This document shows, in pieces, positions 17,649 to 64,000 of a stretch of 64,000 nt of DNA. The DNA is taken from contig CBDBDQ010000005.1 in NCBI GenBank assembly GCA_965203905.1, positions 4,608,001 to 4,672,000 of the forward strand. Direction: 5' to 3'. The translations under genes and the position numbers were made by a program. Positions within the stretch are counted from its first letter, which is position 1. Every line of letters starts with the position of its first letter. A model generated the notes under the pieces. It searched no databases. It saw only the letters and a program-made list of their open reading frames with translations, and had not been told where the DNA came from. Origin of the DNA: Spirochaetia bacterium (GTDB lineage: Bacteria > Spirochaetota > Spirochaetia > SZUA-6 > Bin103).

Positions 17649-17810
17649 CGGGGTGGCGACGCCCTCAGCCCCGCGCGCGCGGAACGTGCGGCGCCGCCGG
17701 CCCCGGCGAGAGCGTGCCTGTCAATACCGTGTCAACTGACCGAGAATAGCGGCCACCGCGTACCGCCCCATGCCTCGTTTCATGGTGTTCAGTGTCACGG
17801 AGTGACCGTG

Positions 17811-18917
17811 CTAATTCCCGTAGAAGAGCTGCTCGGCGCTGTAGATCACCCACTGTGCCACGCCCTCGGTGAACACGTTGTCGAGCCGGTCGTTGACGAT
17901 CAGCACCGTGCCCGGATTGTAGGTCACGTTGATCTGCGGAATGGTGTCGTAGAAGGTCTGCTGGTAGCGGTCGACGATCTCCTGGTCCCACGGGATCCCG
18001 GGACCGATGCCGATGCCCAGCGCGTACAGCTCCTGGAACCATTCCGGCGGTTCTTCGCCCTCGGCGCCGTCGGAGTGGTACCACTGCCGCCACAACGGGA
18101 TGTGGTGGATCAGGTGGTGCTTGGCGTGGCCGAAGGCGTGCATGGTGGTGGCCTCGTTCCATACCGTGTCGATCTGCAGTTGATTGGCGTTGCGGTGCTC
18201 GAACAGGAGGCCGATCTCCACCACCTTGAGGGTGGTGAAGATGCCCACCGCCTTGTAGTGCTCGGCGACCAGCTCGTTGGCCGGCACCGTGTCCGGCAGG
18301 TGCGCCGCCACCTCCAGGTTGATCTCGAAGCGCTCGCCGTCCGGGCCCAGCCGCCAGCCGTCGTTGTCGCGCTTGTCGAGGCCCACCTCGTCGAGCAGCC
18401 GGTTGGCTTCCTCGGGATTGAACTCGGCCGGTACCCACACCGGCGGCGAGGCGAAGCCGTAGTACACCGCGTCGATGATCTCGTCGCGGTTGATCGCCAG
18501 GTTCAGCGCTTTGCGGAAGCGCAGGTCGCCGGCGAACTGGCGCCACACCGGATCGTCGTAGGCGAAGTTGAAGGCGTGCACCACCGGGTTGTAGGGGACT
18601 CCCGAGCCGAGCGCCCGGTAACCGTTGCCCTCGTTCTCGCGGTACAGGGGCAACGACGAGATCTTGGCCAGCTCGTCGGCCAGGTCCACCTCGCCGGCGA
18701 TGATCTTCAGGTTGGCGCCCTCCGGACCCTCCACCTTGGCGCTGACGATGCGGTCGATGTAGGGGAGCTGGTTGCCGGCCGCGTCCACCTTGAAGTAGTA
18801 GGGGTTGCGCTCGAATATCGTCTGCGTCGGCGTGCTGCTGGTAACCAGCCACGGGTGCAGCACCGGAATGTCGACCACGTCGGGGGTCTTGCCTTCCCAC
18901 GGGGTCAGCATCTTGAC
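17811..18917 (-). pseudogene. 5'-truncated family-5 (OppA-like) solute-binding protein
   Basis: ERNPYYFKVDAAGNQLPYID and FRKALNLAINRDEI match the paralogue at 26280-28241 only from about its residue 260. Signal peptide and N-lobe are missing; the gene is fused directly to repeat-element DNA at ~18914-18918. Confidence 0.85.
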
Positions 18918-19569
18918 ACTCGGCGTCGATCACCACCTTCAGCTCCCAGCGGCCCTCGCCCAGCGCGCGCATGCGATCGGCCGGCGGCGCCAGCTCGGGA
19001 GCCACCCCGGCCAACAACTGCTTCACCTCGCGGGTGCTCTTGCCGCTCGCCTGCTCCACCAGCTCCTGCCGCTGCGCCGCGTCCAGCGCCGGCACCGGTC
19101 GCGCCGGCGCCGCTGCCCCGGCCCCCAAAGCCCCCGCCTCCGGCGCCGGCCCCGTGCCGCCCGGCAGCAGCTTCGGTGCCTCGGGCGGCGAGCCGCAGTC
19201 GGTGGCGGCGGTGGCCGTGCGCTGCAGGAGATCGAAGGTGTTCTGCAACTGCGCCGCCGCGCTCAGGGAGAGCGAGCCGTCCTGCAGCCGCTCGCGTGAC
19301 CCGGCGGTATCGGAGCACAGGCGCATGGCTTTGATACGGCGCCACGCGGCACCCTCGCTGTAGCCCAGCTCGCGCACGGCGTAGTCGAACAGGCTGGAGA
19401 ACCCGAGGCGCAGGTGCAGGTGGCGGGCGTGGATCTCGCGCAGGTGGTCGAGGACGGCGAGCTGCAGCGCCTGCTCGTGCAGGACGAGGGACCTGGTATG
19501 CGCCAGCAGCACCTGGTCGGGGAGCCCGGAGAGCGAGGAGGAGAAGCTGGTAGGGGTCGCGTAAGACAT
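18914..19569 (-). pseudogene. N-terminal ~218 codons of a DUF222-like/HNH endonuclease-family protein, 3'-truncated
   Basis: LSGLPDQVLLAHTRSLVLHEQ…HLREIHARHLHLRLGFSSLFDYAVRELGYSEGAAWRRIKAMRL is near-identical to 62903+. Similarity stops at KVVIDAECQ. Confidence 0.8.
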
Positions 19570-20009
19570 GGCGTAAATATAAGCATGGAAGAGAAATAGC
19601 CTGCTGCGGCAAGGCTCGGACCGGCACCTGGAAGGGCTCAGGCCGGCGCTGGCGGGGTGCTGACGGGCCTGGTGGGCGTGGCGGGATGTTCGCAGGGTCG
19701 GAAGGGCCGGAACGTGCGGTAGCGGGCCGTGACGAGCAGCGCCAAACCCGTCAAGTGCTCAGCGCACTTTTTGGCACCTTTGCAGAATCCTGCACCGCGG
19801 CGTCGAGGTAGAAGCAACCCATCGTAGAGACCGGCGATGCGGGAGGCGGATACCCGCTTATTCCTGGACACCTCGTACAGCGATCTAACCACGCACCCTT
19901 AAGACGGCGATCTGACAGGCGCCGGGGGCAATCACCGCCGCTCGGCCACTACTGCCAGAACATCCCTTGCCCACACGGGATTCAGACGTCGCTGAGCATG
20001 GGATGGCCC
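18914..20009 (-). mobile_element. Repeat element copy 1: conserved non-coding leader (19570-20009) plus truncated DUF222-like/HNH-type gene
   Basis: The reverse complement aligns with 59876-60269 plus 62869-63558. Homology starts at GGGCCATCCCATGCT and ends at …ATCGAC…TGTCA. Mobility is inferred from dispersed multicopy occurrence. Confidence 0.75.
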
Positions 20010-20104
20010 GGGGGGGAACTGGGGCGAGCGGAGAGTAACCAGGCCGCTGCTGAGGCGCTGGCGGCTGGCCGCGAGCGGTGGGGCTCGGCATAATCGACCG
20101 TACC

Positions 20105-59657: not shown

Positions 59658-59875
59658 CGCGCTACTCCGCGCAGCGCGCTGCCTGCGTGCCGCGTAGCGC
59701 GACAGCTCCAGGTCTCCGCCTTCCAATCCATCACGTCGCGCATACTACTCTGCACCGGTCGCCGACGTCCTCACCGTTTGGCCCTGGGGCAAGGACGACA
59801 TGACCTGCTGTCGTGCTCGCTGACACACCGGCTGGTCGCCGAACGCGCGCCCGCGGCGTCCGTAAGCGCCCGTCA

Positions 59876-60269
59876 GGGCCATCCCATGCTGAACGATGTC
59901 TGCATCCCGTGGTGTGGGCGAGCTGCGGTGATGCCCCGGCGCGGCGCCTGCCAGATCGCCGCCTTCTGGGTGTGTGGTTCGTTCGCTGTACGACGTGTCC
60001 AGAAAAGAGGGGGTAGCCGCCACCAGCAACGCGCCGGTCTCCGCCGCTGCCTTGCTGGGCTTGTCGGCGCCGCGGTGCAGGATTCTGCAGAAAAGGTGCA
60101 AAAAAGTGCGCTGAGTACTTGACGGGTTTGGCGCTGCTCGTGACGGCCTCCTGCCGCACGTGCCGGCCCCTCCGACCCTTCGAACATCCCCCCGCGCCCT
60201 CCCAGGCCATCAGCACCCCGCCAGCGCCGGCCTGAGCCCTTCCCGATGCCGGTCCGGGACTCTCCGAGA
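59876..60269 (+). ncRNA. Conserved non-coding leader of repeat element copy 2 (candidate structured RNA; continues at 62869-62902 beyond the IS)
   Basis: Colinear homology to the reverse complement of 19570-20009, no ORF conserved between the copies, several stems kept through G-C/G-U exchange. The repeat itself is certain; the RNA interpretation is inference. Confidence 0.45.
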
Positions 60270-60282
60270 GTAAGTATTCGGT

Positions 60283-61179
60283 CTACAGGTTGGGGGGCGG
60301 ATCAAGAGGAGCGCACAGTCGACGGCGGAAGTCGCGCCTGAGCGGGTAGAGCCAGATGTCTTTGGTGGGCAGCGTGTGCATTCGACGTACGTCGAGTTTG
60401 CCGCGTCCTTGGGTTTGTCCGACGTGGGTCCAGTTGGCGGCGCGGTAGCTGGTACCGGCGAAGCGGTCGGACTGCACGAAGGTCTCCAGCAGCAGCGGTC
60501 GGTACCCATAACGCGCCTGCCAGTCGGCGGGCAGCCGGCGGCTGATGCGCGCCAGCACGGTGGAAGCGAGATTGCACACCTGCACCCAAGGCAGGATCAA
60601 GAAGCGGGCGTTGTTCACCACCAGGTGCAGCCGCGCTTCGCGCTGGGCAACGCTCCAGCCGATGAAGCGGTCGCGAGGAGCCGCCTTCCAGGCGCTGGCG
60701 CCAAAGCCGACCACCGCCAGCACCTGCCGCTGGCAGGTGACCAAGTAGCGCTGCTGCGCACCCGGTAGCGGCGTATAGCCAAGGTAGTGGTAGCGGTCCA
60801 CGTACTCGCGCCATAGGAGCGCTTCGCGCTGATCGGCCAGCGGTCGTACCTGCAGCGCGGGCAGCTCATCGACGCGGGCGCTGATCGGCAGCTCCGGTTC
60901 CGCCTGCGCGGTACGACGGCGGCGCAGCGTGCCGTTGTAGTGACGCCGCCGCGGCGCCGGCAGCCGGATGAGCCCGTCGCGGTGCATGCGCAGCATCGCG
61001 ACGCGACAGCTCATGTCCTTCAGTTGTCCGTTGGCACGCCGCCAGTGCAGCCGTTCGCACACCACCTTCGAGAGGGCGAACCGATGGCGGGTAGGGTCCT
61101 CAGCGATGAGCGCGCGGATCAACTGCAGCTCCTGCTCGCTGAAGGGCCGGCCGCAGTAGCGCACCGCCTCAGGCGGCAC
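60283..61179 (-). CDS. DUF4338 / DruA-family protein (N-terminal HTH-like plus GNAT/Mom-like domain); start GTG 61179 or 61164
   Basis: RYHYLG…RYLV, GFGASAW…RDRFIGW, VVNNARFLILPW…NLAS, DWQARYG…LLETFV, GTSYRAANW…GQTQGRG. Stop codon lies inside the IR. Confidence 0.88.
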   Translation of the reverse strand: MPPEAVRYCGRPFSEQELQLIRALIAEDPTRHRFALSKVVCERLHWRRANGQLKDMSCRVAMLRMHRDGLIRLPAPRRRHYNGTLRRRRTAQAEPELPISARVDELPALQVRPLADQREALLWREYVDRYHYLGYTPLPGAQQRYLVTCQRQVLAVVGFGASAWKAAPRDRFIGWSVAQREARLHLVVNNARFLILPWVQVCNLASTVLARISRRLPADWQARYGYRPLLLETFVQSDRFAGTSYRAANWTHVGQTQGRGKLDVRRMHTLPTKDIWLYPLRRDFRRRLCAPLDPPPNL

Positions 61180-62794
61180 GGTCGTCGACCAGCTTGGCGG
61201 GTGAGCCGCGGGGCAGCAAGCGCGCCTCGGGACGGTGCCAGGGCAGGAACCGCTCGTAGTCTTCAGGCACGCGAGCGCCGGCGACCGCACAGGCGCTCAG
61301 GTACTCGGTCAGCCAAGTACGCGGGTTGATCTGCCATCGTTCGAGGGTGTGGAACAGGCTGAACAGCGCCGCGCTCAACTCACCGCTCCACTGCGCCCCC
61401 GAGCCGTAGTAGTTCTTGCGCCCCACCACCGGGCCGCGCAGCGCACGCTCGGCTTGATTATTGTCCAGCGGCAAGTCGGGATCCTCGACGAACCGCGTCA
61501 GCCCCTGCCAGTGGTTGCGCATGCTGCGCAGCACCTTCGCACACGCTGCCGCCAGCTTCGGCTGCTGCGCCAGTTCGCGCTCTCGTCGCTCTTCCATCGC
61601 CTGCACCACCGCCCGCAACGCCGCATCGGCCGCCGCGTACTGCGCGGGCTCACCACGCACCTCAAGACGCTCGTCGTTCAGGCGATACAGCGTAGCGATG
61701 TCAGCCAGCCACTGCTCGGCCCACTCCTGCTGATCGTCCCGCTCATGGGCTACCGTGATGAAGTCGCGGCGCATGTGCACCCAGCAGAACGACAACTCCA
61801 GCTCGGTATCCTTGGCCAGCCGCTTGTACGAGGAGAAGCGGTCGACGCTCACCACGCCCCCCGTCACGGTCGCAAAATGCTGCTTCGGCACCCGCGCCGA
61901 ACGGGTTGGATCGAGCGTGAATACCACCACCTCGGCACTCCAGAACAGCCACAGACACCAGCGCTGGCAGGTGTCCTCGCTGGCCGCCTCGAACACCTGC
62001 CAGCTGGTCTCGTCAGCATGCCAGTGCTCGCTCGTGCGGCTGCGTTCGATCAGCGCCTCGCGCAGTGGCGCGAACAACGGCGCCAGACGCCGCAGACCGT
62101 CGGTGACGGTGCCTTGGGCAAGATCCAGCCCATGCGTGCGTAGATCCGCGAGCAACCGATGCGTGGGCCGGTACAGCAGATACTTGTCGAGCAGCACCGT
62201 CACCCAGATCGAGATCCCCAGGATGCCGTTCGGGATCAGCCGTGGCGGCGCTGGCGCCGTGAGCACCGCCGCGGCCGCCGTGCACTGGCAGCTGCGGCGG
62301 TAGCGCCGCCGCTTGATCACCCGCCGGTAGGCGCGCACCTCGACTTCCAACTGCTCGGAATCCTCGCTGCCGTGCGAATGATACTCAGCGCCGCAGGCCG
62401 CGCAGCGGCGCCGGTCCGGGGCAACGTCGTGTGCTTCAACCTGTACCGGCAGGTGTGCGTGCCGGCGCCGACCATGGCTTGGCGCCCCGGGTTGCTGACC
62501 GCGGCGCCGCGGTGGCGCGGCGGTTGCCTCAGGAGCGCCGCCACTCCTGGTTCGCTTCTCGCTGCCGCGGCGCCGTGCCCAGCGTTCCCGCAGGCGCTGG
62601 CGCAGTTCCTTGAGCTTGGCCCGTGCCGCTTGCAGTTTCTGTTTCAGCCGTTGCTCGCGCGCTACCGCCTTGCCGTGCATCCTGCGGTAATAGCGCGCCT
62701 GTCGTCGCAGCTCTACTACCTCGCACCGCAACTCGTCCATCTGGCTCTGGCACGCCGCCGTGCAGCCACTCGTTTTCCGCCAGAACCCTCCCAC
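61169..62794 (-). CDS. tnpC: IS66 family DDE transposase
   Basis: Leucine-zipper-like N-terminus, RRRGQQPGAPSHGR, CAACG zinc finger, HADET, VDRFSSY, CWVHMRR, DNNQAERALR…GRKN. True start may be ATG 62740. Confidence 0.93.
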   Translation of the reverse strand: MGGFWRKTSGCTAACQSQMDELRCEVVELRRQARYYRRMHGKAVAREQRLKQKLQAARAKLKELRQRLRERWARRRGSEKRTRSGGAPEATAAPPRRRGQQPGAPSHGRRRHAHLPVQVEAHDVAPDRRRCAACGAEYHSHGSEDSEQLEVEVRAYRRVIKRRRYRRSCQCTAAAAVLTAPAPPRLIPNGILGISIWVTVLLDKYLLYRPTHRLLADLRTHGLDLAQGTVTDGLRRLAPLFAPLREALIERSRTSEHWHADETSWQVFEAASEDTCQRWCLWLFWSAEVVVFTLDPTRSARVPKQHFATVTGGVVSVDRFSSYKRLAKDTELELSFCWVHMRRDFITVAHERDDQQEWAEQWLADIATLYRLNDERLEVRGEPAQYAAADAALRAVVQAMEERRERELAQQPKLAAACAKVLRSMRNHWQGLTRFVEDPDLPLDNNQAERALRGPVVGRKNYYGSGAQWSGELSAALFSLFHTLERWQINPRTWLTEYLSACAVAGARVPEDYERFLPWHRPEARLLPRGSPAKLVDDRAA

Positions 62795-62890
62795 ACCTCA
62801 TTCGTAGCACACCGGTCCGGATGTGTCCAGCGGTCCCACACCGGTAGACCGAATGTTTACCTCCGAGATCTGTCATTTCTCAGCCATGCT

Positions 62891-62896
62891 TATATT
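62891..62896 (+). promoter_or_regulatory. -10 box for a probably leaderless DUF222/HNH-type transcript
   Basis: CCATGCT-TATATT-TACGCC-ATG is identical in both element copies, with no Shine-Dalgarno. Confidence 0.6.
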
Positions 62897-62902
62897 TACG
62901 CC

Positions 62903-64000
62903 ATGGCTACCGCGACCGCTCCCGGCTTCTCCTCCTCGCTCTCCGGGCTCCCCGACCAGGTGCTGCTGGCGCATACCAGGTCGCTCGTCCTGCACGAGCA
63001 GGCACTGCAGCTCGCCGTCCTCGACCACTTGCGCGAGATCCACGCCCGCCACCTCCACCTGCGCCTCGGGTTCTCCAGCCTGTTCGACTACGCCGTGCGC
63101 GAGCTGGGCTATAGCGAGGGTGCCGCCTGGCGCCGTATCAAAGCCATGCGCCTGTGCTCCGATACCGCCGGGACCCGCGAGCGGCTGCAGGACGGCTCGC
63201 TCTCCCTGAGCGCCGCGGCGCAGTTGCAGAACACCTTCGATCTCCTGCAGCGCACGGCGACCACCGCCGCGGACCCCGGCTCGCCACCCGCGGCACCGGA
63301 GCTGCTGCCGCTCGGCACGGGTCCGGCGCCGGAGGCGGGGGCTTCCGGGACCGGGGCAGCGGCGGCAGCGCGACCGCTGCCGGCGCTGGACGCGGCGCAG
63401 CGGCAGGAGCTGGTGGCGCAGGCGAGCGGCAAGAGCACCCGCGAGGTGAAGCAGTTGTTGGCCGGGGTGGCTCCCGAGCTGGCGCGGCCGGCCGATCGCA
63501 TGCGGGCGCTGGGCGAGGGCCGCTGGGAGCTGAAGGTGGTGATCGACTCTGCCTGTCAGTGCGGGATCGAGCAGCTACGAGCACTGCTGTCGCACGTGGA
63601 CCCGCACCTGACGCTGGGACAGCTGGTGGAGCGGCTGGTGCAGGACGGCCCGCAGCGCTACGACCCCGGGCGACCGCCGCGCGGGCGCAGAGGTGGGCAC
63701 CGAGAGGCAAGCGCGGGCCAAGCGCAGGAGCCGACGGCGCAGCAAGGGCCGGCAGGCGGGGCAACTTCGCCGGCGAAGTGGGGCGCGCAAGAGCAACCCG
63801 GAGTGCCACCGACGCCGGAGGGCACGAGCGCCGGTGGCAGGACCCCGGCGCCGGCAGCGCTGTCCGTAGAGGAACCCGCGTGCGGGATTGGCCGTGCCGA
63901 CACCTCGGCGGTGGCAGCGCTGTCCGCGCCGCCGTCGGGGCGCGAGACTTGCGGCGGCAGCACGCCGGTGAGTGCCAAGCCAGCGGCGGCAGCGCCCGGC
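62903..64000 (+). CDS. DUF222-like/HNH endonuclease-family protein, N-terminal 366 codons (runs off the right edge; HNH domain not visible)
   Basis: Open from ATG 62903 to the window end: MATATAPGFSSSLSGLPDQVLL…GFSSLFDYAVRELGYSEGAAWRRIKAMRL…GKSTREVKQLLA…IEQLRALLSH, then a low-complexity linker. This N-terminus is typical of multicopy proteins that end in an HNH domain. Confidence 0.75.
   Translation, partial: MATATAPGFSSSLSGLPDQVLLAHTRSLVLHEQALQLAVLDHLREIHARHLHLRLGFSSLFDYAVRELGYSEGAAWRRIKAMRLCSDTAGTRERLQDGSLSLSAAAQLQNTFDLLQRTATTAADPGSPPAAPELLPLGTGPAPEAGASGTGAAAAARPLPALDAAQRQELVAQASGKSTREVKQLLAGVAPELARPADRMRALGEGRWELKVVIDSACQCGIEQLRALLSHVDPHLTLGQLVERLVQDGPQRYDPGRPPRGRRGGHREASAGQAQEPTAQQGPAGGATSPAKWGAQEQPGVPPTPEGTSAGGRTPAPAALSVEEPACGIGRADTSAVAALSAPPSGRETCGGSTPVSAKPAAAAPG

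Follow-up and report, generated by a model that had tools for sequence, protein, structure and literature searches.

Two copies of a gene for an HNH-type nuclease, each preceded by the same leader, lie in the stretch of Spirochaetia bacterium DNA that we analysed (64,000 nt; hereafter the window). An earlier note had proposed that this leader is a conserved structured RNA, or a structured single-stranded DNA end, used by the nuclease. The locus therefore raises the question of what the leader is, and whether it acts as RNA or as DNA.

Copies, ends and target duplications of the element

Alignment of copy 1 with copy 2 confirmed that the start of the gene and about 400-440 nt upstream of it are common to both, with an abrupt start of homology between unrelated flanks. 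The start points given previously were sharp but misplaced, as the true ends lie 2 nt farther out, at the C of CAGGGCC (20011 on the minus strand and 59874 on the plus strand). Both window copies are real and both are dead (Table 1). The gene fragment joined to broken copy 1 matched PF00496 (E 9.1e-27), with the match starting at profile position 120. The leader of copy 2 had been taken as one uninterrupted stretch; it is broken 34 nt before the ATG by an IS66-family element that carries an IS66 transposase (PF03050, E 9.9e-60) and a DruA-like ORF (PF14236, E 7.1e-48), has inverted repeats GTAAGTATTCGGTCTAC and is flanked on either side by the 8-bp duplication CTCCGAGA. Neither copy encodes the HNH domain, because copy 1 stops at 18913 and the homology of copy 2 to the other copies ends 261 nt past position 64000, upstream of the HNH part; an HNH domain had been expected beyond the window end. 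The variable part of the left arm contains a second ATCCC motif (GAATCCCGTG) and a 24-26-nt indel, as well as sites where a 9-nt duplication or an insert of 66 nt is present in part of the copies (alignments A2 and A3), and the indel patches noted before are genuine polymorphisms among copies.

Table 1. Features of the two element copies and of the adjoining non-element DNA in the window
Feature	Position	Strand	Basis or remark
Copy 1, family-A element, 3'-truncated; element positions 1-1099 of ~2116	18913..20011	-	nhmmer with a model of 16 full copies; alignment with copy 2
Copy 1, left terminal inverted repeat	19988..20011	-	CCGGGCCATCCCATGCTCAGCGAC; consensus CAGGGCCATCCCATGCTGAACGAC
Copy 1, left arm, variable part	19797..19987	-	Alignments A2 and A3
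Copy 1, conserved leader core	19607..19796	-	Match to sequence-only model R1
Copy 1, -10 box TATATT, leaderless promoter	19576..19581	-	6 nt before ATG at 19569-19567
Copy 1, ORF remainder: N-terminal 219 codons (helical N-domains), rest lost	18913..19569	-	
Non-element: C-terminal fragment of a peptide-type solute-binding protein gene (SBP_bac_5), joined to broken copy 1	17811..18911	-	
Copy 2, left portion to IS66 insertion point	59874..60269	+	Inverted repeat 59874-59897, variable part, core 60074-60267
Non-element: IS66-family insertion sequence inside copy 2 leader, 2591 bp	60270..62860	-	
Copy 2, remainder	62861..64000	+	Last 42 nt of leader, -10 box 62891-62896, ATG 62903, ORF past window end

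The earlier note knew of only two copies. We found that the 8-Mb genome contains about 50 loci of a 2.1-kb insertion-sequence-like element, termed family A, and that the leader alone, used as a query, gave 49 matches in its own genome. Both ends were present in 25 of the 50 loci. The ends are imperfect 24-bp inverted repeats (CAGGGCCATCCCATGCTG...); when 24 left and 39 right termini were lined up, the left consensus was CAGGGCCATCCCATGCTGAACGAC and the right terminus, which had previously been left to be defined, ended in ...GTCGCGCAGCGTGGGATAGTCCTG. Read by eye, the two consensus sequences are complementary at about 19 of 24 positions. Target duplications of 9 bp were also identified, with at least 8 of 9 bases alike in 12 of 21 copies compared to 7 of 420 non-self flank pairs. 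The insertion sites were diverse despite a similarity of about 80-85% among the leaders, and no target consensus was evident. The earlier note was upheld in its view that the unit is mobile and selfish, and that it is centred on a gene for an HNH-type nuclease which has a leaderless promoter of its own.

Related elements gave up to 70 protein matches per genome, and more than 1300 homologues were found in public metagenomes. Four subfamilies were distinguished, comprising elements of 1.8-2.2 kb with a single ORF, imperfect 17-26-bp terminal inverted repeats and tens of copies per genome. The left arm ranges overall from 340 to 610 nt (430-440 nt in family A, about 344 in G010, about 455 in G022 and about 607 in family B), and an 8-bp duplication was present in 3 of 4 G022 copies. 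We rejected the reading that the core is the entire left arm in family B and G022, as longer flanks gave further shared sequence and the true inverted repeats. The inverted repeats vary together with the HNH protein subfamily in 4 of 4 subfamilies from three genomes. As each subfamily has its own inverted repeats, 8-9-bp duplications and long left arm, these comparisons suggest that the HNH protein recognises its own ends.

The encoded HNH protein and its leaderless promoter

The element ORF specifies a protein of about 530 aa in which a disordered linker joins helical N-domains to a C-terminal HNH domain. An open frame of at least 500 codons is kept in 36 of 50 loci, and 30 of 31 full-length matches were free of stops. 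Diversity at the three codon positions was 0.050, 0.031 and 0.093 in the N-domain and 0.101, 0.052 and 0.192 in the HNH part. The same measure applied to the leader yielded 0.123, 0.100 and 0.099, with no periodicity. The ORF is under purifying selection at the protein level and is intact in most copies.

The HNH family PF01844 matched family B above the cut-off (E 4.6e-5, 23.9 bits) and family A below it (E 0.0017, 18.9 bits). The element protein contains the C-terminal HNH motif (beta-beta-alpha-metal; D-H ... N ... H with Cys pairs), in which C476, C487, D496, H497 and N511 were invariant in 11 sequences and C516, H519 and H520 nearly so. A fold search returned HNH nucleases only (McrA, Cap5, Gme HNH and Cas9 HNH; best E 0.04), and the same search with the N-terminal domains gave nothing significant (SopB at E 1.3). 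Pfam and NCBIfam searches of the element found HNH alone and no transposase of a known class; a DDE, DEDD, HUH, serine or tyrosine enzyme was not found in the element, and its alternative ORFs and other frames matched no Pfam family.

As the earlier note had stated, the gene has its own -10 box (TATATT), 6 nt before the ATG in both window copies. A box at this distance would place the mRNA start at or adjoining the start codon. Most of the relatives examined share this leaderless promoter: the motif TA[TCA]A[CT]T-N5-7-ATG occurs in 6 of 8 relatives belonging to other genomes, in all 5 family-B loci and in 11 of 12 family-A loci. In family A the sense -10 box is overlapped by an antisense TATAAT, which was discarded, as a by-eye reading of the aligned promoters indicated that it is not kept in other subfamilies.

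The leader as RNA or as DNA

The stems previously listed for the leader do exist, but they are not evidence of structure, as they pair no better than sequence identity dictates. Across 39 copies, compensatory changes were found in 0 of 31 pairs, covariation was 0.040 compared to 0.042 after shuffling, and 91.7% of stem cells were paired compared to 91.8% after shuffling. In the same alignment, 339 'helices' of 4 bp or longer were at least 85% paired in the sense orientation and 537 in the antisense orientation. Across 98 diverged sequences the stems were 40-68% paired, RNAalifold yielded 0 consensus pairs and no sense helix of at least 4 bp was at least 85% paired; alignment A5 was built by sequence alone, and short helices could be blurred in it. 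Folding energy was no better than that of shuffled sequence (MFE z +0.41 sense and -0.04 antisense). Two further hairpins were rejected, GCGGC/GCCGC being 65% paired and TTCCGG/CCGGAA of a second genus 56% paired across subfamilies. Rfam searches gave 0 matches at gathering score for the whole window, HEARO and omega RNAs included, and 0 matches at E<=1 for four element loci from four subfamilies. The leader likewise did not resemble a guide: the longest exact match of a target site averaged 8.24 nt to the leader of the same copy and 8.08 nt to the leaders of other copies, and the variable patches, which the earlier note had suggested comparing with target sites, did not match the flanks of the carrying copy. 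From these data we conclude that the leader very probably contains no conserved structured RNA. No covariation, consensus structure or excess folding energy was found, and a lack of covariation across many copies is the result that the earlier note itself had named as refuting its proposal. The idea of an ncRNA-nuclease pair can be set aside for the window locus.

Within the leader (430-440 nt), a spacer rich in indels separates the left inverted repeat from a core of about 190 nt. Besides an A-tract and an invariant CTTGAC, this core has conserved blocks set at intervals and the palindrome GTCCnGGAC. CTTGAC was rejected as the -35 element of a sigma-70 promoter because it has no -10 partner. 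The motif ATCCC/GGGAT occurs 2.6 times per leader compared to 0.95 in shuffles. Homologous genes are accompanied by the leader only in part: of 24 genomes from the bacterial family, 15 had the core according to sequence-only model R1, but some subfamilies are without this leader sequence, and G009-G012 gave 30-70 protein matches each, yet zero matches to the core model. Within family A, diversity was 0.15-0.18 in the variable part compared to 0.10 in the core. As the core value (0.104) is about equal to that of N-domain third codon positions (0.093), constraint on the core rests on the comparison between subfamilies.

We conclude that the leader is almost certainly the left arm of an insertion-sequence-like element. 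It is rather likely that this non-coding arm acts as cis-acting DNA without encoding a conserved structured RNA, and we give even weight for and against a DNA-level function of the core. Proceeding inwards, the arm comprises the left terminal inverted repeat, whose ATCCC core recurs about 23 nt farther inwards, an indel-tolerant spacer of about 200 nt, the core of about 190 nt with short invariant blocks at fixed spacing (CTTGAC ... GTCCnGGAC) and, innermost, the -10 box 6 nt upstream of the ATG. The termini and the subterminal motif may be bound by the element's own protein, the core could serve as a promoter-proximal control or assembly region, and the palindrome, which lies about 50 nt before the start, would be a likely operator. 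One observation counts against this explanation, namely that the core is kept between subfamilies whose proteins share only about 47-58% identity. Moreover, a long left arm occurs throughout the family, and this would be compatible with an RNA product as well.

An RNA product could arise if the core were transcribed and acted without a conserved fold, either as the long 5' UTR of a second, leadered mRNA started near CTTGAC or as a separate small RNA that would regulate the HNH protein or assist it. We consider this unlikely, although the A-tract and CTTGAC are invariant in 95 of 95 full rows of alignment A5, core length is nearly fixed across subfamilies, long left arms are kept by all four subfamilies, and G010-type relatives carry the same AACTTGAC at the -35 position of the leaderless promoter. 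No -10 hexamer lies 16-18 nt after CTTGAC in any subfamily (TAACGG, TGACGG or AGGTGG is found instead), a consensus promoter scan of the leader returned 0 promoters, and the leader showed no structure, Rfam match or target complementarity. Metatranscriptome contigs from four RNA runs were also inspected. In run X22 they covered the gene and about 200 nt at the 3' end of the leader, core included, and hardly its 5' part; one contig bridges the ATG and extends 138 nt into the leader, so that some transcripts are not leaderless if this contig is RNA. However, the X22 contigs are unstranded, stem from mixed metagenomic communities and may be DNA, and the drop in depth falls where the subfamilies cease to be alike. 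This run was therefore not used for or against transcription, and its uncovered part proves nothing. A structured guide or scaffold RNA of the omega or bridge type, or a structured single-stranded DNA end used by the nuclease, is highly improbable. Although a long non-coding region adjoins an HNH gene in a mobile unit and drawable stems are common to both window copies, every structure test was negative, insertion sites are diverse despite the similarity of the leaders, with no copy-specific match, and the protein has no RuvC or DEDD part and scored 15.2 and 21.8 bits with IscB model NF040563 against a cut-off of 175, over the HNH part only. We see hardly any prospect that the leader is the remnant of a decayed protein-coding gene or that the pair is a simple segmental duplication. 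GC-rich sequence does leave long open frames in some copies, such as the leader-into-ORF frame at C5:88194, but the leader has stops in all six frames and no 3-base periodicity (a single stop-free sense frame was found, in 1 of 39 copies), in keeping with the earlier view that no ORF is conserved in it. ORFs overlapping the leader gave no Pfam match, and segmental duplication is excluded by the fifty loci with target duplications.

A further alternative is that the elements are non-autonomous, with a transposase encoded elsewhere acting in trans, the HNH gene being cargo and the leader partly a relic of the original transposon interior. Several points favour this explanation, which we nevertheless regard as improbable. 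Near-identical inverted repeats (CAGGGCGATCCCATGCT... / ...AGCATGGGATTGTCCTG) enclose a different gene, a YhgA-like/Rpn 'Transposase_31' ORF (PF04754, E 9.8e-16), in a second kind of element of about 1.29 kb; strand transfer is not known among HNH nucleases; and ISAs1-family elements have ends starting with CAGGG and 8-10-bp duplications. On the other hand, the two YhgA-like loci are the only other places in the genome with family-A-type termini, no ISAs1 transposase scored above the cut-off in the genome, and the inverted repeats vary with the HNH protein subfamily. The purifying selection on an ORF that is intact in most copies, and the lack of Pfam families in the alternative ORFs, likewise argue against a trans-acting enzyme. 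Tentatively, we propose instead that the DUF222-like HNH protein may be the transposase, or at least an end-specific mobility enzyme, of inverted-repeat elements making 8-9-bp duplications. If true, the HNH protein would represent a catalytic class different from the transposase types known so far, its binding and control platform would be the long left arm, and the long-unexplained multicopy DUF222-HNH genes would become testable as autonomous transposons.

Comparison with known systems

Literature searches turned up no title or abstract beginning that describes such an element, and an earlier description is possible. Like IscB/omega (HEARO) RNA and OMEGA systems (PMC4810608 and PMC13565253), the element has an HNH domain in a mobile-element protein and a non-coding region upstream of the gene. 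Unlike IscB, its protein is without RuvC, and there was no HEARO or other Rfam match; the predicted model of the protein showed helical N-domains and HNH rather than a RuvC split by HNH with a bridge helix. IscB elements have IS200/IS605-type ends, without inverted repeats or duplications. IS110/IS1111 elements with bridge or seeker RNA (PMC11187229) share the long non-coding region inside the element beside the enzyme gene. In these, a DEDD enzyme and a structured RNA go with site-specific insertion, whereas the present elements have diverse targets, 9-bp duplications and no structure. The Rpn/YhgA-like 'Transposase_31' is also a nuclease gene that used to be annotated as a transposase, and in this genome it lies between family-A inverted repeats; it differs in belonging to another protein family, in its few copies and in being absent inside HNH elements.

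The DUF222-HNH genes (13E12-repeat type) resemble the element gene in their helical N-terminal region, linker, C-terminal HNH and multicopy nature, and the DUF222-like label of the earlier note holds for this layout but not for membership. No element protein matched PF02720 at E<=0.1, and a genome-wide search at E<=1 identified 9 other loci and none of the present ones. A profile-profile comparison with DUF222 by hhalign aligned the HNH part alone, and a language-model look-alike search (Atlas), in which a DUF222 cluster ranked first (0.94), was taken as a lead only. The DUF222 label is a resemblance, not membership. One aligned pair of bona fide DUF222 loci in the same genome had no inverted repeats and no long leader. 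The likeness of the start of the bona fide DUF222 element (GGGTTGACACGG) to the core CTTGAC was treated as chance because this sequence is part of an open frame, and another DUF222 copy has a similar translation there. The present element provides an experimental handle on the movement of HNH-only selfish genes of the DUF222 kind.

Judged by its ends, the closest known system is the ISAs1 family. Membership in that family was rejected, since the best match to NF033564, in a 108-aa frame at another place in the genome, reached 28.3 bits where the cut-off is 70. By generic criteria for insertion sequences, terminal inverted repeats (in four subfamilies) and target-site duplication were found, and a known transposase class was not. 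With classical bacterial insertion sequences the element shares its length, single ORF, terminal inverted repeats, fixed target duplications, tens of copies and the lack of an evident target consensus; it differs in its unusually long non-coding left arm and in that its sole conserved ORF combines helical N-domains with a C-terminal HNH. It is thus an unusual high-copy natural system, in which the hallmarks of a classical transposon, with no recognisable transposase, surround one HNH-nuclease gene.

Copy number, ends and target duplications

Alignment of the two element copies in the window revealed an abrupt common start (CAGGGCC / CCGGGCC) between unrelated flanks, as the earlier note had described. 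The sharing is real, but the number of copies given there, two, was an under-count. The ~440-nt leader, i.e. the non-coding stretch upstream of the ORF, by itself gave 49 matches in its own 7.99-Mb genome, ~40 of them long, at 75–86% identity, and chained BLAST hits of a full copy resolved into 50 loci in this genome (family A). A nucleotide profile of 16 full copies identified 25 loci with both ends. Lining up the termini yielded imperfect inverted repeats, CAGGGCCATCCCATGCTGAACGAC on the left and GTCGCGCAGCGTGGGATAGTCCTG on the right, and the 9 bp flanking both ends were the same sequence, indicative of target duplication. Allowing ±2 nt for end definition, at least 8 of the 9 duplication bases matched in 12 of 21 copies compared to 7 of 420 non-self flank pairs; at zero offset six duplications were perfect and nine reached 8/9. 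No common sequence was seen by eye among the duplicated 9-mers. The element is ~2.1 kb long and consists of a left arm of ~430 nt, an ORF of ~1.6 kb and a right arm of ~100 nt. We conclude that the unit is a high-copy insertion-sequence-like transposable element with an HNH-only gene.

Neither window copy is intact. Copy 1 loses its homology to other copies at 18913, where it is fused to the C-terminal portion of a solute-binding gene of the SBP_bac_5 type (PF00496 match from profile position 120 onwards). It seems that a single deletion removed the 3' half of the element together with the 5' end of the SBP_bac_5 gene. The IS66-family element within copy 2 has 17-bp inverted repeats (GTAAGTATTCGGTCTAC, starting GTAAG), an 8-bp duplication (CTCCGAGA), an IS66 transposase (PF03050) and a DruA-like ORF (PF14236); the DruA-like gene may merit separate study. 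An HNH domain had been expected for copy 2 beyond the window. Instead, homology to other copies gives out 261 nt beyond the end of the window and does not reach the HNH-coding part.

Just outside one element copy, upstream of G000:C5:2122353, lies a ~125-nt repeat that is unrelated to the element and occurs about a dozen times in the genome. Of the sequencing runs that contain parts of the window, mostly as small shares, the majority bear sponge, coral or reef metagenome labels.

Coordinates of element copies and associated features; G000:C5 denotes the window's own genome and contig, all other numbers are window positions unless a locus (L) is named
Feature	Position	Strand	Remark
Copy 1	20011-18913	minus	~440 nt non-coding DNA, then ORF
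Copy 1 ORF start	19569	minus	TATATT box 6 nt upstream
SBP_bac_5 part fused to copy 1	17811-18925		C-terminal two thirds; head of peptide ABC-transporter operon
Chimeric open frame, copy 1 ORF plus SBP_bac_5	17665-19569		634 codons
Copy 2 left end	59874	plus	alignment with copy 1
IS66-family element	60270-62860		2591 bp; splits copy 2 leader 34 nt before ATG
YhgA-like ~1.29-kb element, long copies	L208:501-1790 = G000:C5:5515052-5516341; G000:C5:3261700-3262970		
Family-B examples with internal terminus copy	G000:C5:4836000-4838100, 5227230-5229460		
Bona fide DUF222(-HNH) genes	G000:C5:1180481, 7322239, 764801, 2630590, 4926923, 6710315, 6906958, 7490078, 5311993		

The element protein and its relatives

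Of the 50 family-A loci, 36 retained a frame open for 500 codons or more, and no internal stop interrupted 30 of the 31 full-length matches to the protein in the window's genome. Over the first 235 codons, diversity at the first, second and third codon positions was 0.050/0.031/0.093; the HNH part gave 0.101/0.052/0.192. Both patterns indicate selection on the protein; the middle linker (0.104/0.086/0.104) was devoid of this signature. The other long frames of the element matched no Pfam family.

The gene had been described as DUF222-like with an HNH domain. The only Pfam match was a weak C-terminal HNH (E 0.0017 in family A and 4.6e-5 in family B, a second family in the same genome), and the only NCBIfam match was to the IscB model, confined to its HNH part and scoring 15–22 bits versus a cut-off of 175. 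The DUF222 model matched nine other loci in the genome and none of the element proteins, and profile–profile comparison with the bona fide DUF222 group aligned the HNH alone. A language-model look-alike search with the element protein ranked a DUF222 cluster first (0.94). From these data we conclude that the layout is DUF222-like, as proposed, and that membership is not established. The nine bona fide genes constitute a separate ~1.8-kb repeat family (78–84% alike); in the one pair aligned, homology started near the ORF start and ended near the stop, and no inverted repeats were seen.

In an AlphaFold model built from 11 sequences, confidence was high for a helical domain at residues 20-126 and for the HNH at 460-527, and moderate for a second domain at 165-255; residues 264-456 formed a disordered linker. 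Foldseek searches of the PDB returned HNH nucleases only (best E 0.04) and nothing for the N-domains. An N-domain query gave 1335 matches at E<=1e-5 in a large protein collection; the best 120 of these were all unnamed, and three had a precomputed Pfam domain, namely HNH.

With this protein as the query, matches were obtained in 20 of 23 further genomes from its bacterial family, as many as 70 in one genome, and in none of 17 genomes from seven other families of the order. Family B (~12 loci) is 72–77% identical to family A over the gene and the core, the conserved part of the leader. Its left arm measures ~607 nt and its inverted repeats read GGGTGCATTCCGTCACTGTGG / ...CCACAGAGAAAGAATGCACCC; of the two copies examined, one had a duplication matching at 8/9 and the other at 7/9. 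In relative G010 the left arm measures ~344 nt, with inverted repeats reading GGGCGCACTTCCAAA and a duplication of 8–9 bp; in G022 it measures ~455 nt, the inverted repeats are GGGTCTTCAGGAATGCGTGTGG / ...CACACGAAACCCGGAAGACCC, and three of four copies examined have an 8-bp duplication. This comparison indicates one constant architecture in which the ends differ from one protein subfamily to the next. In each family-B element, ~56 nt of the left terminus also recur internally as a direct copy, immediately behind the ORF stop and ~225 nt away from the right end.

Leader anatomy and the structured-RNA question

In an alignment of 40 copies the leader was composed of four parts: the left inverted repeat, an indel-rich stretch, the core and the promoter. 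A second ATCCC motif lies 23 nt inward of the left inverted repeat, and ATCCC/GGGAT occurred 2.6 times per leader compared to 0.95 in shuffles. The indel-rich stretch (~200 nt, diversity 0.15–0.18) contains a 24–26-nt indel. Seven copies share a 66-nt insert at a single position of the leader, and about a dozen have a 9-nt duplication, GCAGGATTC (alignment columns 312-375 and 386-394 cover the two). Such polymorphisms are carried by copies including L061, L063, L066, L067, L074 and L077; both lengths are multiples of three, yet the region is non-coding. The ~190-nt core has few indels (diversity 0.104) and contains blocks at fixed spacing, among them an invariant CTTGAC and a GTCCnGGAC palindrome ~50 nt upstream of the start.

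Two features proposed in the earlier note were borne out. Stops occurred in all six frames in nearly all leader copies, one copy having one stop-free sense frame, and there was no 3-base periodicity, in keeping with a leader without a conserved ORF. The putative leaderless promoter is well supported because its -10 motif, TA[TCA]A[CT]T-N5-7-ATG, is conserved: it was found in 6 of 8 relatives outside this genome, at all 5 loci of family B and at 11 of the 12 of family A. Several other relatives have a canonical TTGACT -35 at 17 nt.

The five RNA stems proposed from the two copies fared differently. Across 39 family-A copies, compensatory changes were found in 0 of 31 pairs, 91.7% of cells were paired compared to 91.8% after shuffling, and the covariation score was 0.040 versus 0.042, a value that 436 of 500 shuffles equalled or exceeded. 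Most one-sided changes disrupt pairing, and one position of the AAGUGC/GCACUU stem was unpaired in 14 of the 39 copies. An unbiased helix scan of this alignment returned 339 sense and 537 antisense 'helices' at least 85% paired, none standing out by compensatory change; these are simply invariant GC-rich sequence. RNAalifold energies were alike on both strands, and the copy-1 leader folded no better than its own shuffles (z +0.41 sense, -0.04 antisense). Rfam gave no match on the window at gathering score and none at E<=1 on four element loci.

A sequence-only core model (R1) from 22 sequences of several subfamilies found matches in 15 of 24 genomes of the bacterial family; both genera were represented, and genomes other than the window's own had as many as 23 matches each. 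RNAalifold predicted no consensus pair at all from 98 R1-aligned matches. The three proposed stems that lie in the core were paired in 40–68% of cells, as were two further candidate hairpins, which were rejected. Among sense helices of 4 bp or more, none reached 85% paired; six antisense helices did, each with at most one compensatory change per pair. We conclude that the stems arise by chance from sequence identity, and that the ncRNA interpretation of the leader is not supported. Nor do the variable patches look like guides, since the longest exact target-site match averaged 8.24 nt for a copy's own leader and 8.08 nt for other copies' leaders. Four genomes (G009–G012) with 30–70 protein matches each had no R1 match, so homologous genes without this leader sequence exist; long left arms are still present.

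In our best reading the leader is cis-acting DNA, in which the outer part would be an end-recognition region, the middle a tolerant spacer and the inner part a promoter-proximal core of fixed-spacing blocks. As the core is conserved between subfamilies with proteins only ~47–58% identical, it is constrained, and its reader would be a protein or RNA. Contigs from one of four metatranscriptome runs cover the gene and core, one of them bridging the ATG; being unstranded and possibly DNA, these contigs were not counted as evidence. That the core acts as a transcribed but unfolded RNA is unlikely in our estimation.

Mobility of the element

No other element in the genome had family-A termini, with one exception, a ~1.29-kb element with near-identical inverted repeats and, on the opposite strand, a YhgA-like/Rpn ORF (PF04754 'Transposase_31', E 9.8e-16). 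This element has two long copies (88% alike) and three that are partial or more diverged. Its shared ends would fit a possible mobilization of family A in trans. We favor the HNH protein as a putative end-specific mobility factor because the ends co-vary with the protein, the ORFs are intact and selected, and there is no other candidate.

Among the papers listed on DUF222, REP13E12 and HNH transposases with inverted repeats and target duplication, no title or opening part of an abstract described such an element. Affiliation with ISAs1 was rejected, as no ISAs1 transposase reached the cut-off in the window's genome. The family-A ends (CAGGG, 9-bp duplication) are reminiscent of the ISAs1 family. 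A new transposase class is a testable possibility for this unit.
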